From a virus, in UHGV virus genome UHGV-0195539: a stretch of 37,850 bases of DNA. One strand, given 5' to 3'. The notes beneath the pieces were generated by a model. The model searched no databases and was not told the DNA's origin. It saw only the letters and a program-made list of their open reading frames with translations. Made by a program: the position numbers and the translations under genes. Shown here piece after piece: positions 23,232-37,850 of the stretch (its first letter is position 1; every line of letters starts with the position of its first letter).

Positions 23232-23258
23232 CGCGCTTCGCTTGTCTGCTGCTTCGCC

Positions 23259-23281
23259 GGGGCATAAAAAATTTATGCCCC
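23259..23281. terminator. bidirectional hairpin between converging portal gene and orphan gene
   Basis: Inverted repeat GGGGCATAAA-AAA-TTTATGCCCC seen directly. Confidence 0.45.
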
Positions 23282-23296
23282 GACTCTCCAGCTCTC

Positions 23297-33837: not shown

Positions 33838-34188
33838 TTAGTTGTTGTGAAAACTTCTTCCGTTTATCAGGCGGTCTGCTGTCCTTAAGGCTTCAAAAAG
33901 TGTGAAGTCCTGCCCGAAATATTCATCACCCCGTGTCAGAGAAAAATTAAATCTGCCAGTAACAGGGCTGCGAAGGCTTTTGTGAATGACGATGCCGGTA
34001 TCGCCAACCGTCCAGGTGTGTTTGCCGGTTTGTGTTACAGGGCGGCCGTCAGGTGTTGCATGGATTTCAGTGGTTGCGGTCGCACCATTTTTACGGTGGG
34101 ACTGACACGCAACGTTGCGTTCTGCGCCACTGCGCAATTTGTGGCGTTCAGTGTTGTTATGGATGCGCGCATTTCGTTGTTGCTTCAT
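33838..34188 (-). CDS. hypothetical protein (116 aa)
   Basis: ORF in the early operon; no motif recognised. Confidence 0.45.
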   Translation of the reverse strand: MKQQRNARIHNNTERHKLRSGAERNVACQSHRKNGATATTEIHATPDGRPVTQTGKHTWTVGDTGIVIHKSLRSPVTGRFNFSLTRGDEYFGQDFTLFEALRTADRLINGRSFHNN

Positions 34189-34213
34189 TCTTCACTCGGT
34201 CCTTATGCGATGA

Positions 34214-34408
34214 TTACAGTGATTCGTCTCTTGTCAGCCTAAAAATCACTTCAGCCATGACTTCGCTAATTACATCGATCCCCTGATCGGTAAGGGCTTC
34301 TTTCCAGGCCTTGCTTGCACGTGTTGGATCCATCCTGCCTGATTGCTGTTGTATGATGATGAAGCGTAAATCGCTGTATAAGTCTTTTGTTTGAGTGGAG
34401 TCAGTCAT
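34214..34408 (-). CDS. hypothetical small protein (64 aa)
   Basis: ORF following the Cox-like gene. Confidence 0.4.
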   Translation of the reverse strand: MTDSTQTKDLYSDLRFIIIQQQSGRMDPTRASKAWKEALTDQGIDVISEVMAEVIFRLTRDESL

Positions 34409-34459: not shown

Positions 34460-34984
34460 TCACTGGTTGCCTTCGCTGTATTGGTGTTGCTCCAGTTTTG
34501 ACTTTCTTCCTGTGTAAACCCGCTTTCCATTGATGGTCTGGCAGTCTTCTTTGTTTGCCGGGGAAAACTTTCTTTTCTGTCGGTCGTACGTCCAGTAGCT
34601 TTTCCAGTTGTGCCATTCTGGCGGCTCGCATTCTGGTAGTTCGTCAGCCAGCTTGTCCCACTCTCTGGCGTTAAACCACCATACGCCATCCGAATTTTCA
34701 TCTTCAGGGTTTGAACGGGTCTTGTGTCCAGGCATCTGATTTCGCTGAAGCGCCACGCGCAATGCAGCTTTTGTCAACCCGATATAGGCTGCCCCTTTTT
34801 CAAGTGAGCAAAGTCCGGCTACCGGGCCATCCAGTCGCAAGGTTGCCCCTTTTTTGTAGGTGCGTTTTTTCTTTTCCTCTTGGTGTTCATCGTCGTTTGC
34901 CGCGCCAACGGATTCGGTGATGCTGTCGTTTTCATGAAGGGCTTGTGTGTCAGATAACTCTTTATCGGCAATTGACTTCCGCAT
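34460..34984 (-). CDS. Cox/Apl-like early regulator (putative excisionase/repressor), unusually long
   Basis: First gene of the early operon, divergent from C; HTH-like YIGLTKAALRVAL and WWFNAREWDKLA resemble P2 Cox; AAGAGGA SD. 174 aa versus 91 aa for P2 Cox. Confidence 0.45.
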   Translation of the reverse strand: MRKSIADKELSDTQALHENDSITESVGAANDDEHQEEKKKRTYKKGATLRLDGPVAGLCSLEKGAAYIGLTKAALRVALQRNQMPGHKTRSNPEDENSDGVWWFNAREWDKLADELPECEPPEWHNWKSYWTYDRQKRKFSPANKEDCQTINGKRVYTGRKSKLEQHQYSEGNQ

Positions 34985-35044
34985 TTGCTATCCTCTTGCG
35001 TTGGTGCGCTTGTCGCGCATCATGAAGGTTTGTTTAGGTTTATA

Positions 35045-35068
35045 AAAGATACTCGCACGAGTATCTTT
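35045..35068. promoter_or_regulatory. perfect 24-bp palindromic operator candidate in the C/cox switch region
   Basis: AAAGATACTCG-CA-CGAGTATCTTT read directly; overlaps a TATAAA -10-like element. Confidence 0.5.
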
Positions 35069-35088
35069 CGCGAGAGGTTAATACTCAA

Positions 35089-35430
35089 ATGGTTATCTTG
35101 TCAATAGACTATGCAAAAAAGCTACGTCAAATACGCAAGGCTGAAGGGCTAACGCAAAAGGAATTTGCGGATATTACGGGGTTGTCTTTAGCTGCCATAA
35201 GGAACTATGAATCAGGGCAAAAAAGCGCCAGAGCCAAAATTGTTGAGATGGTTCTCCAAGTTGATCGGTTTGAAAAATACATGATGTGGCTAATAAAAGA
35301 TAAGACAGTGCCTGCTGCCGGTCAGATAGCTCCGGCTCTCTCTCTTGATGGCTCCATTCAGTCGGAGGACGATCAGGATTCAATCCCAGCCACCCAAAAA
35401 TCATCCCGATCAGGCCGCAATGCTGGCTAA
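35089..35430 (+). CDS. C: immunity repressor C (XRE-type HTH)
   Basis: HTH LTQKEFADITGLSLAAIRNYESGQ and QIAPAL motif match P2 C repressor; directly upstream of int. Confidence 0.8.
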   Translation: MVILSIDYAKKLRQIRKAEGLTQKEFADITGLSLAAIRNYESGQKSARAKIVEMVLQVDRFEKYMMWLIKDKTVPAAGQIAPALSLDGSIQSEDDQDSIPATQKSSRSGRNAG

Positions 35431-36492: not shown

Positions 36493-36607
36493 TTGTAATT
36501 TGCGTTAATTTGCTCCCCTTGTTTTGATTTAGTCATTGAAAAATAAGTAAATCATCAAGGGGAGTAAGGTGTGTTAAATCTCCTGCGGGCGCTTTTTTTG
36601 TCTCCCT

Positions 36608-36621
36608 TTGATACCGAACAA
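36608..36621. promoter_or_regulatory. FNR-like half-site pair (TTGATaccgAACAA) in the host dmsA promoter region
   Basis: Resembles FNR consensus TTGAT-N4-ATCAA; dmsA is a known FNR-activated gene. Confidence 0.3.
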
Positions 36622-36791
36622 TAATTACTCCTCACTTACACGTAATACTACTTTCGAGTGAAAATCTACCTATCTCTTTGATTTTCAAATTATTCGATGT
36701 ATACAAGCCTATATAGCGAACTGCTATAGAAATAATTACACAATACGGTTTGTTACTGGAATCAATCGTGAGCAAGCTTGAGTGAGCCATT

Positions 36792-37850
36792 ATGAAAACG
36801 AAAATCCCTGATGCGGTATTGGCTGCTGAGGTGAGTCGCCGTGGTTTGGTAAAAACGACAGCGATCGGCGGCCTGGCAATGGCCAGCAGCGCATTAACAT
36901 TACCTTTTAGTCGGATTGCGCACGCTGTCGATAGCGCCATTCCAACAAAATCAGACGAAAAGGTTATCTGGAGCGCCTGTACAGTTAACTGTGGTAGTCG
37001 CTGCCCGCTACGTATGCACGTCGTGGACGGTGAAATCAAATATGTCGAAACGGACAATACCGGCGATGACAATTACGACGGCCTGCACCAGGTTCGCGCC
37101 TGTCTGCGTGGGCGTTCCATGCGTCGCCGTGTCTACAATCCGGACCGCCTGAAATATCCGATGAAACGAGTCGGGGCGCGCGGTGAAGGCAAATTCGAGC
37201 GCATTAGCTGGGAAGAAGCCTACGACATCATCGCGACCAATATGCAGCGCCTGATCAAAGAGTACGGCAACGAGTCTATCTATCTGAACTATGGCACCGG
37301 TACGCTGGGCGGCACCATGACCCGCTCCTGGCCGCCGGGAAATACCCTGGTCGCGCGCCTGATGAACTGCTGCGGCGGTTATCTTAACCATTACGGTGAC
37401 TACTCTTCTGCGCAAATTGCGGAAGGTTTGAACTATACCTACGGCGGCTGGGCAGATGGTAACAGCCCGTCGGATATCGAAAACAGTAAATTGGTAGTGC
37501 TGTTTGGTAATAACCCAGGCGAAACGCGAATGAGTGGCGGTGGGGTGACTTACTATCTTGAACAGGCACGCCAGAAATCTAATGCCCGCATGATCATCAT
37601 CGATCCGCGCTATACCGACACCGGTGCCGGGCGCGAAGATGAGTGGATCCCTATTCGTCCAGGAACAGATGCCGCACTGGTTAACGGTCTGGCGTATGTC
37701 ATGATCACCGAAAACCTGGTGGATCAGGCATTCCTTGATAAATATTGCGTTGGCTACGATGAGAAAACCCTGCCCGCTAGCGCGCCGAAAAATGGCCACT
37801 ATAAAGCTTATATTCTGGGTGAAGGGCCAGATGGCGTGGCTAAAACACCG
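36792..37850 (+). CDS. dmsA: anaerobic DMSO reductase catalytic subunit DmsA, N-terminal part (runs off window end)
   Basis: Begins MKTKIPDAVLAAEVSRRGLVKTTAIGGLAMASSAL (twin-arginine signal) with CTVNCGSRCPL cluster motif; matches E. coli DmsA as recalled. Not in ORF track because no stop in window. Confidence 0.85.
   Translation, partial: MKTKIPDAVLAAEVSRRGLVKTTAIGGLAMASSALTLPFSRIAHAVDSAIPTKSDEKVIWSACTVNCGSRCPLRMHVVDGEIKYVETDNTGDDNYDGLHQVRACLRGRSMRRRVYNPDRLKYPMKRVGARGEGKFERISWEEAYDIIATNMQRLIKEYGNESIYLNYGTGTLGGTMTRSWPPGNTLVARLMNCCGGYLNHYGDYSSAQIAEGLNYTYGGWADGNSPSDIENSKLVVLFGNNPGETRMSGGGVTYYLEQARQKSNARMIIIDPRYTDTGAGREDEWIPIRPGTDAALVNGLAYVMITENLVDQAFLDKYCVGYDEKTLPASAPKNGHYKAYILGEGPDGVAKTP

Follow-up and report, generated by a model that had tools for sequence, protein, structure and literature searches.

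The P2-type switch is a textbook alternative to the lambda switch. One version of it, found in the 37,850-nucleotide viral genome UHGV-0195539 (the window, meaning the whole stretch analyzed), raises two questions: which regulator reads the symmetric repeat between its C and cox genes, and does its first early gene really encode a Cox protein much longer than that of P2? This region controls the choice between lysis and lysogeny in a P2-type (int-C-cox) prophage, which belongs to a P88/Xuanwuvirus-like lineage and is inserted upstream of dmsA in E. coli. The prophage is reversed in the window; cox, the first gene of the early operon, diverges from C and int, and host dmsA (start 36793) lies beyond int:

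34460-34984, minus strand: long cox gene, 174 amino acids plus stop, first gene of the early operon
34985-35088: 104-bp spacer between cox and C
35089-35430, plus strand: gene for the C immunity repressor, a P2-C-type helix-turn-helix (HTH) protein of 113 amino acids
35500-36492, plus strand: gene for the tyrosine integrase (int), in the lysogenic operon, 3′ of C

The integrase was identified by Pfam (Int_N and Phage_integrase) and by the RefSeq annotation of a locus, that of E. coli SCU-106, which is 99.5% identical to the window's. Among 5,426 complete E. coli genomes, 340 matched the 1.3-kb switch segment, 24 of them at 95% identity or more and most others at 80-90%; relatives of the segment are also present in Salmonella, Yersinia, and Serratia. 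The closest isolated phages are Peduoviridae of the P88/Xuanwuvirus type (72-81% identity, with partial query coverage). A search for an att core repeat (14-nt seed) found none at a minimum repeat length of 18 nt. The original prediction of a C/cox immunity switch was borne out. As switches go, the locus is of an ordinary kind, and its two twists are modest: a probable palindromic operator and a long Cox.

C is a homologue of P2 C and is presumably dimeric. It contains an HTH_3 domain (E 3.7e-10), is 35% identical to P2 C over 80 amino acids (BLASTP, E 1e-21), and matches the PDB entries 2xcj/2l49 (phmmer, E 1e-13) and PHROG 147. Like P2 C (PDB 2XCJ), it combines the HTH with the conserved C-terminal GQIAPAL segment. 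P2-type C repressors are cited as a rare case of proteins recognizing non-palindromic direct repeats. Such repeats are the operators of all seven classes known in 2010, even though P2 C forms a symmetric dimer similar to proteins that bind palindromes (PMC2995052).

A repeat search of the window revealed a dyad-symmetric element in the spacer, at the position where relatives carry class-specific dyads:

35045-35068: interrupted palindrome, AAAGATACTCG-CA-CGAGTATCTTT, proposed primary C operator O1

The two 11-nt arms (35045-35055 and 35058-35068) are 100% complementary and flank a 2-nt centre, CA. Since CA is not self-complementary, 22 of the 24 positions are symmetric, and the element is an 11+2+11 inverted repeat. 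The repeat that had been described as a 24-bp perfect palindrome is therefore real, but not perfect. A true perfect 24-mer occurs in one relative (L036; AAAGATAACCGTACGGTTATCTTT, with 24/24 positions symmetric), while another (L005) carries the exact reverse complement of the window's repeat. The proposed O1 core is the 18-bp sequence GATACTC-N4-GAGTATC. Inverted repeats with arms of at least 11 nt and spacers of at most 6 nt number two in the 37.8-kb window, compared to 0.05 expected from first-order Markov simulations. The other one, at 23258-23282, resembles a terminator. We rejected an intrinsic terminator as an explanation of the C/cox repeat, as its stem is not G+C-rich, it lacks a proper T tract, and a terminator scan did not list it.

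The palindrome had also been described as overlapping a -10-like element. A TATAAA at 35041-35046 does overlap the left arm by 2 nt, but it is not conserved: it is confined to the window's own lineage, and members of the same repressor class have TTGTAAAG there. We rejected TATAAA as a conserved -10 because it is absent from relatives. The conserved promoter by the dyad reads from the opposite strand (Pe, below). Since published P2-type C proteins bind non-palindromic direct repeats, the dyad symmetry of O1 departs from the family paradigm in form, though not in layout. We found no description of a dyad-symmetric O1 in P2-type switches in the searchable literature.

To place the repeat among its relatives, we compared the spacers of 39 IMG/VR loci and several RefSeq/GenBank loci encoding long-Cox relatives; a scan of genome contigs gave one locus, from E. 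albertii. (Scanning the sequence collection for the pattern AAAGATA-N10-TATCTTT was unspecific, with more than 120 unrelated contigs matching.) In all 43 loci compared, conservation extends over the ~60 bp of the spacer nearest cox, while the C-proximal ~45 bp falls into discrete classes that track the class of the adjacent C. A dyad is present at the same position in every class. In class A, to which the window belongs, C starts with MVILSIDY and contains LSLA(A/T)IRNYESG, and the dyad reads AAAGATA-N10-TATCTTT. Class A members share the same outer 7 bp; the inner 10 bp are variable but mostly symmetric, and their differences do not clearly follow those in the recognition helix of C. In class B, which includes PhiECO5 of strain UTI89, C reads MVNMSRDY..VSVGTIGNYESG and the dyad is CTTCACC-N4-GGTGAAG, with 10-bp arms. 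In class C, C starts with MNSTLST and the dyad is TGTCG-N6-CGACA. From the covariation of dyad and repressor we infer that C binds this operator, represses Pe, and gives class-specific immunity. As the dyad and C are adjacent and are inherited as one module, the covariation could partly reflect physical linkage.

A relaxed position weight matrix (PWM) scan of eight class representatives and a search for further copies of the repeat gave the following:

35075-35080, minus strand: predicted -10 of Pe, TAACCT
35099-35104, minus strand: predicted -35 of Pe, TTGACA, within C codons 4-6
35077-35100: degenerate second operator copy O2, GTTAATACTCAAATGGTTATCTTG

Pe reads toward cox, with TTGACA (35104-35099) separated by 18 nt from TAACCT (35080-35075). 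In all eight representatives the top cox-sense match has this position and the form TTGAC(A/G)-18-TA(A/T)NCT or TAAAAT. A default sigma-70 promoter scan returned nothing at its threshold; Pe is a promoter predicted by the relaxed PWM, and its -10 is weak. Its position would place the early transcription start near 35068, such that O1 would cover about +1 to +24.

O2, which was recovered both by the repeat search and by matching to the class A pattern, is 32 bp from O1 in the window, overlaps the C start codon, and lies between the -35 and -10 of Pe. Its central part (35080-35097) has one mismatch to the class A pattern GATAMYC-N4-GRKTATC. Classes A, B, and C each have a second copy, offset by +32/33 bp, and the right half of this copy is class-specific (GGTTATCTT, GGTGAAC, and TTCGACAC in the three classes; the class-specific right halves of classes A, B, and C are ATGGTTATCTT, ATGGTGAAC, and ATTCGACAC). 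O1 and O2 also stand in a direct-repeat relation. In silico they bracket the predicted Pe -10, in keeping with P2-type C operators, whose two copies span the -10 or -35 of Pe at a distance of two to three helical turns. Since the dyad tracks the C class and its copies flank the conserved Pe -10, we read it as the C operator O1 over the Pe start; most likely, the repeat is the main binding site of the C repressor at the early promoter.

We considered whether the palindrome acts mainly as RNA, with protein binding secondary, either as a 5′ stem-loop of the Pe transcript or as a hairpin in the C leader, making the mRNA more stable or modulating its translation. A transcript starting near 35068 would open with an 11-bp hairpin, and the predicted fold of the early 5′ UTR (-23.4 kcal/mol) has a z of -4.2 compared to shuffled sequences. 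At positions 8 and 9 of the arms, class A members show paired substitutions in both arms (C-G to A-T and T-A to C-G), and the T-G intermediates would form U-G wobbles on the C-sense strand. However, these same intermediates are mismatches on the cox-sense strand, which is that of the Pe transcript. Moreover, each arm has an outer 7 bp that does not vary inside a class but is wholly different between classes, a pattern expected of a protein site rather than of a stem conserved for pairing alone. The class-specific half-copy 32-33 bp away cannot pair with anything, the arms of class C are only 5 bp, and Rfam gave no match. We therefore regard a mainly RNA-based function as unlikely. As the outer arms are fixed within each class and the half-copy at O2 is unpaired, protein recognition is probably primary, and an RNA role may coexist with the proposed operator role.

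The other half of the spacer and its surroundings contain elements that are shared across classes:

35010-35044: class-independent, cox-proximal intergenic DNA, a candidate Cox operator or Pc region from the spacer alignment and TTGT boxes
34950-34972: near-invariant DNA block in cox codons 5-12, synonymous sites included, across immunity classes (alignment A4)
36500-36523: three TTG[CT] boxes phased at 10 bp, directly 3′ of the int stop, a speculative candidate Cox site on the att arm

The block within cox contains the dyad GATAA..TTATC. Across cox codons 1-13, pS is 0.17, compared to about 0.5 elsewhere. The block also overlaps the -35 (TCGGCA, 34965-34970) of a weak C-sense promoter candidate. 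In P2/186-type switches, Pe and the lysogenic promoter Pc converge and their transcripts overlap. Here, the search for Pc gave no single site but three weak, mutually exclusive candidates. The one just named (TCGGCA, 18-nt spacer, TATCCT at 34989-34994) would be convergent with Pe and is the only one conserved in all classes. The second, ATGAAG-13-TATAAA (35022/35041), is confined to the window's lineage and resembles the annotated ATGAAT-14-TATAAT of P2. The third, TTTATA-17-TATCTT (35039/35062), would be nearly back-to-back with Pe.

In relatives, the conserved half-spacer carries four TTGT boxes with 10-bp phasing. Counted from the cox ATG they occupy +25 to +55, and they form the only such chain in each ~4.5-kb relative locus. 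The window retains two of the four (35010 and 35030). A phased TTGY chain of at least four boxes was found only in relatives and is absent from the window, and thus the idea that these are Cox boxes stays a lead. The boxes at 36500-36523 are the only chain of at least three on the plus strand of the window, and P2 has an annotated Cox site at the same relative place, the 3′ end of int.

We also considered whether the palindrome is an operator of Cox, or of both regulators, rather than of C. The dyad does sit in the spacer that C and cox share, and P2 Cox can repress Pe as well when its concentration is high (PMC3936717). If Pc overlaps the dyad (as TTTATA-17-TATCTT or the TATAAA at 35041-35046 would), a protein bound to the dyad would also affect Pc. 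However, two mosaic loci (L006 and L008) encode Cox proteins 99% and 98% identical to the window's, yet have a class B C and a class B dyad, unrelated to that of the window. Thus, the dyad moves with C and not with Cox, and it matches the C class in every case. In addition, the sites bound by factors of the Cox/Apl/Xis type are phased direct repeats rather than dyads (PMC7498355, PMC3936717), and phased TTGT repeats are present in the conserved half of the spacer. We consider it very improbable that the palindrome is a Cox site, and continue with O1 as the proposed operator of C.

We next consider the first early gene, for which the following features were defined:

34991-34996, minus strand: cox Shine-Dalgarno sequence AGAGGA, 6 nt before the ATG (AAGAGGAtagcaaATG), invariant in 12 of 12 aligned loci
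34844-34984, minus strand: cox residues 1-47, a disordered, mostly acidic N-terminal extension with the motif M-x3-IADKELSD
34580-34843, minus strand: cox residues 48-135, the Cox winged-helix core plus Trp-rich helices
34463-34579, minus strand: cox residues 136-174, a basic tail that ends RKSKLEQ

[quoted passage not shown] Residues 1-47 include 11 D/E and 9 K/R (pI 5.6), with the acidity concentrated in residues ~7-37 and followed by a KKKR patch; the Cox-like part spans residues ~48-135. The original prediction did not mention the C-terminal extension (~39 amino acids, residues 136-174), which is basic (pI 9.8).

The ORF opens at the first start codon downstream of a stop, and the long reading frame could in principle be an artefact, with a shorter, active Cox made from an internal start and the upstream part serving as a leader. 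An in-frame TTG at codon 49 has AAGGGG upstream at a suitable distance, and the AlphaFold2 (AF2) model shows no structure for residues 1-45. This TTG is the sole candidate for the downstream non-ATG start, giving a Cox-sized protein, that had been named as the finding that would undo the prediction, and it is not conserved as a start: in relatives, codon 49 is TTA, CTT, CTA, or CTG. By comparison, the ATG, the Shine-Dalgarno sequence, and the MxxxIADKELSD motif are kept down to about 37-50% identity. Gene-length differences among relatives are multiples of three only, and pN/pS is below 1 in every region (N motif 0.69, linker 0.45, core 0.15, and tail 0.33). The protein is annotated at full length in RefSeq, in GenBank phage records, and in PHROGs. 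Since the lone alternative start is unconserved, the normal start and motif are kept, all indels preserve the frame, and the extension has a pN/pS below 1, we conclude that the long protein is real and give an internally initiated Cox hardly any weight.

We determined how the long protein relates to other Cox proteins using profile searches, bridging alignments, and fold comparison. Pfam Phage_Cox (PF10743) matches residues 58-129 (E 1.4e-5), at 25.3 bits compared to a cut-off of 27.5, and close homologues of the window Cox carry a precomputed PF10743 match. PHROG 23196, whose profile length is 174, matches over the full length (E 1.6e-119). The short and intermediate Cox proteins of PHROG 1831 match with E 4e-15, and a 118-amino acid intermediate that can be aligned with the window Cox has a Cox-family score of 102 bits. 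Direct comparison of alignment A1 with the single P2 Cox sequence was weak (hhalign probability 6%, E 0.006). We rejected the only hits from PDB searches with the Cox protein or profile A1, which were spurious matches to NDUFA12 on the PPEWHxW motif (E 0.7-7). NCBIfam has no model for long Cox. The link to P2 Cox was obtained through the fold search and bridging alignments.

Alignment with P2 Cox, a check proposed with the original prediction, placed the 91-amino acid protein along residues ~44-135 of the long Cox. In alignment A2, P2 Cox P38 corresponds to P85 and W81 to W127, both invariant columns, and W84 corresponds to Y130/W131. These three P2 residues are needed for the oligomerisation of P2 Cox into filaments (PMC3936717). 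An AF2 model built on A3, an alignment of 66 sequences (with the shallower A1 the pLDDT was 41), has a core with pLDDT 75-86, residues 1-45 below 50, a tail at 55-66, and 61 for the whole model. Its elements (E58-60, H61-68, H72-80, E86-89, E101-105, and H106-119) form a beta-alpha-alpha-beta-beta-alpha winged HTH, the fold of PF10743 as seen in PDB 4LHF. In Foldseek, the top match was P2 Cox itself (4LHF; probability 1.00, TM(target) 0.69, rmsd 2.2 Å over 68 columns).

The two extensions are shared by a whole group of proteins. Homologues of 166-196 amino acids occur in E. coli, Shigella, Salmonella, Yersinia, and Serratia, and more distant ones of 158-161 amino acids in Serratia, Enterobacter, and Sodalis. 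The homologues all begin with M-x3-IA(D/E)(K/E)xLSD; then come a linker, acidic and differing in length, and a KKK patch. The Cox core, the PPEWHxWxxYWTYDR motif, and a basic tail with R(K/R)SKLE at its end are also common to them. Lengths in the Cox family are multimodal, at about 91, 108-137, 158-161, and 166-196 amino acids. The protein is therefore unusually long relative to P2 Cox, as had been noted, but family members of the three greater length groups are common. Of the suggestion that it is a fused or extended regulator, only the second part stands: neither the N- nor the C-terminal extension matches another Pfam or PHROG family and, among 1.84 billion representative proteins, the tail is restricted to this Cox subfamily; the protein is extended rather than fused. 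Nilsson et al. (2011) described group 2 Cox proteins as "larger" and assigned UTI89 PhiECO5, which has a P2-type switch, to a tentative immunity class IX defined from sequence only (PMC3448106). PhiECO5 probably belongs to this Cox group. By these comparisons, the long Cox represents a widespread subfamily that is already catalogued (PHROG 23196) and functionally uncharacterised, and its extensions appear as conserved, lineage-specific additions.

A model that we consider probable is that Pe is occluded by C dimers bound at O1 and O2, while the targets of Cox, once Pe is expressed, are the att arm and that half of the spacer which does not differ between classes. In this model, a C dimer would bind the dyad O1 (35045-68) and, more weakly, O2 (35077-35100), three helical turns apart. 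Together they would bracket the Pe -10, with O1 spanning the transcription start. Since O1 would cover the start, bound C is proposed to shut off the early operon and so to confer class-specific immunity. When Pe fires, its first product would be the 174-amino acid Cox-family winged-helix protein, which, by homology with P2 Cox, would repress the lysogenic promoter and direct excision. Cox probably oligomerises on phased repeats, in the class-independent cox-proximal half-spacer and adjoining int.

A bolder version, in which this clade of switches departs from the P2 paradigm because its C repressors read a true palindrome with both dimer subunits plus a half-palindromic auxiliary site, and because the Cox tails are functional modules, is one that we hold only tentatively. 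If true, it would provide a natural test case for the way in which P2 C, a symmetric dimer, recognizes repeats that are not palindromic. The Cox tails might be, for example, an autoinhibitory or DNA-mimicking gate on filament formation or a lambda-Xis-like contact with integrase; either role would add a layer of control missing from the 91-amino acid P2 Cox.

Our findings leave the known logic of the P2-type switch unchanged. A dyad-symmetric C operator in a large group of prophages with the same spacer architecture would make it easy to study DNA recognition by this repressor family through comparison. The 91-amino acid P2 Cox lies at the short end of its family, and the conserved Cox extensions could affect how excision is controlled and how prophages are induced in E. 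coli and Salmonella from the clinic.

Comparison with known systems shows which parts of this switch are shared. Lambda Xis and other winged-helix recombination directionality factors (RDFs; 186 Apl, RdfS, and Pukovnik Xis) have the fold of the long Cox (Foldseek matches 8dgl and 4j2n), and binding to phased direct repeats is expected for both; in lambda Xis, too, the winged helix is followed by a C-terminal tail without structure (PMC3936717). They differ in that long Cox has no detectable sequence similarity to these proteins and that Cox is also a transcriptional repressor.

P2 (NC_001895) has the same gene order and orientation, a homologous C, and a homologous Cox core of the same fold. 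Its annotated Pe -35 also overlaps the first C codons, and its O1 and O2 also flank the Pe -10. In contrast, P2 has operators of 8 bp that are direct, non-palindromic repeats with a spacing of 22 bp, whereas here O1 is a 24-bp dyad with a partial O2 32 bp away. The Cox of P2 has 91 amino acids, while that of the window is extended at both ends. No array of the P2 cox-box (TTAAAGNCA) is evident here, where there are phased TTGY boxes instead. In WPhi, C half-sites of ~10 bp lie 34 bp (about three turns) apart and likewise flank the Pe -10 (PMC1904263, PMC1904268); here the spacing is 32-33 bp and the shared right half is 8-10 bp. The WPhi half-sites are direct and non-palindromic, its Cox is short, and its repressor has another specificity (PMC1904263, PMC1904268). 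PhiECO5 of E. coli UTI89 shares the long Cox subfamily (173 amino acids), the spacer architecture, the serS-dmsA insertion site, and the integrase type; it differs in its class B C and in its operator, TTCTTCACC-atgt-GGTGAAGAA.

Two IMG/VR loci encoding relatives of the long Cox, L006 and L008, have Cox proteins 98-99% identical to that of the window, yet their C repressor and operator belong to another immunity class. Comparison with the window places the breakpoint near 35040. Both loci are natural mosaics, and because they pair a near-identical Cox with a different C and operator class, they show that C and the right half of the spacer are swapped as a single immunity module. Reverse-complementing the window palindrome gives exactly the spacer palindrome of a third locus, L005 (IMG/VR 2657245500_000012), AAAGATACTCG-TG-CGAGTATCTTT; the two differ only in the asymmetric centre, which is flipped. 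Two point changes or hairpin-mediated inversion could account for this difference.

Further features of the window are as follows:

34950-34972, within cox codons 5-12: near-invariant DNA block TCAGATAACTCTTTATCGGCAAT, from a comparison of 12 loci
34838-34840, cox codon 49: in-frame TTG with AAGGGG 5 nt upstream
36500-36523, + strand: three TTG[CT] boxes with 10-bp phasing, directly past the int stop codon
23258-23282: inverted repeat CGGGGCATAAAAAATTTATGCCCCG
33838-34408: genes downstream of cox, a 64-aa ORF and a DUF4761 protein
36513-36567: 9-bp inverted repeat CTCCCCTTG..CAAGGGGAG

The block inside cox is almost completely identical across the 12 loci, which span five immunity classes, and this identity extends to synonymous sites; pS is 0.17 for codons 1-13, compared to ~0.5 for the remaining codons. 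The dyad GATAA..TTATC lies within this block, which also overlaps the -35 element of a conserved but weak candidate promoter in the C sense. Together, these observations suggest that codons 5-12 are constrained at the DNA or RNA level. The TTG at codon 49 could allow minor internal initiation of cox, specifically in the window's prophage; its relatives have no start codon at this position.

Besides the spacer palindrome, the only long inverted repeat in the window is that at 23258-23282. Since its stem ends are G+C-rich and its centre A/T-rich, it looks like a bidirectional intrinsic terminator.

The boxes past int form the only 10-bp-phased TTG[CT] chain on the + strand of the whole window. 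Upstream of cox, relatives carry four such phased boxes, two of which the window retains (35010-35044). Both sets are possible Cox boxes, and the annotated Cox sites of P2 occupy like positions.

The prophage end adjoins the dmsA promoter region (36493-36800; dmsA ATG at 36793). A repeat search of the window with an 18-nt minimum length found no att core. PhiECO5, the long-Cox prophage of E. coli UTI89, uses the same serS-dmsA insertion site. In early-operon gene content, the window's prophage differs from P2: orf78 and B are absent from 33838-34408, which instead holds the 64-aa ORF, lacking any family match, and the 116-aa DUF4761 protein (E 2e-29).
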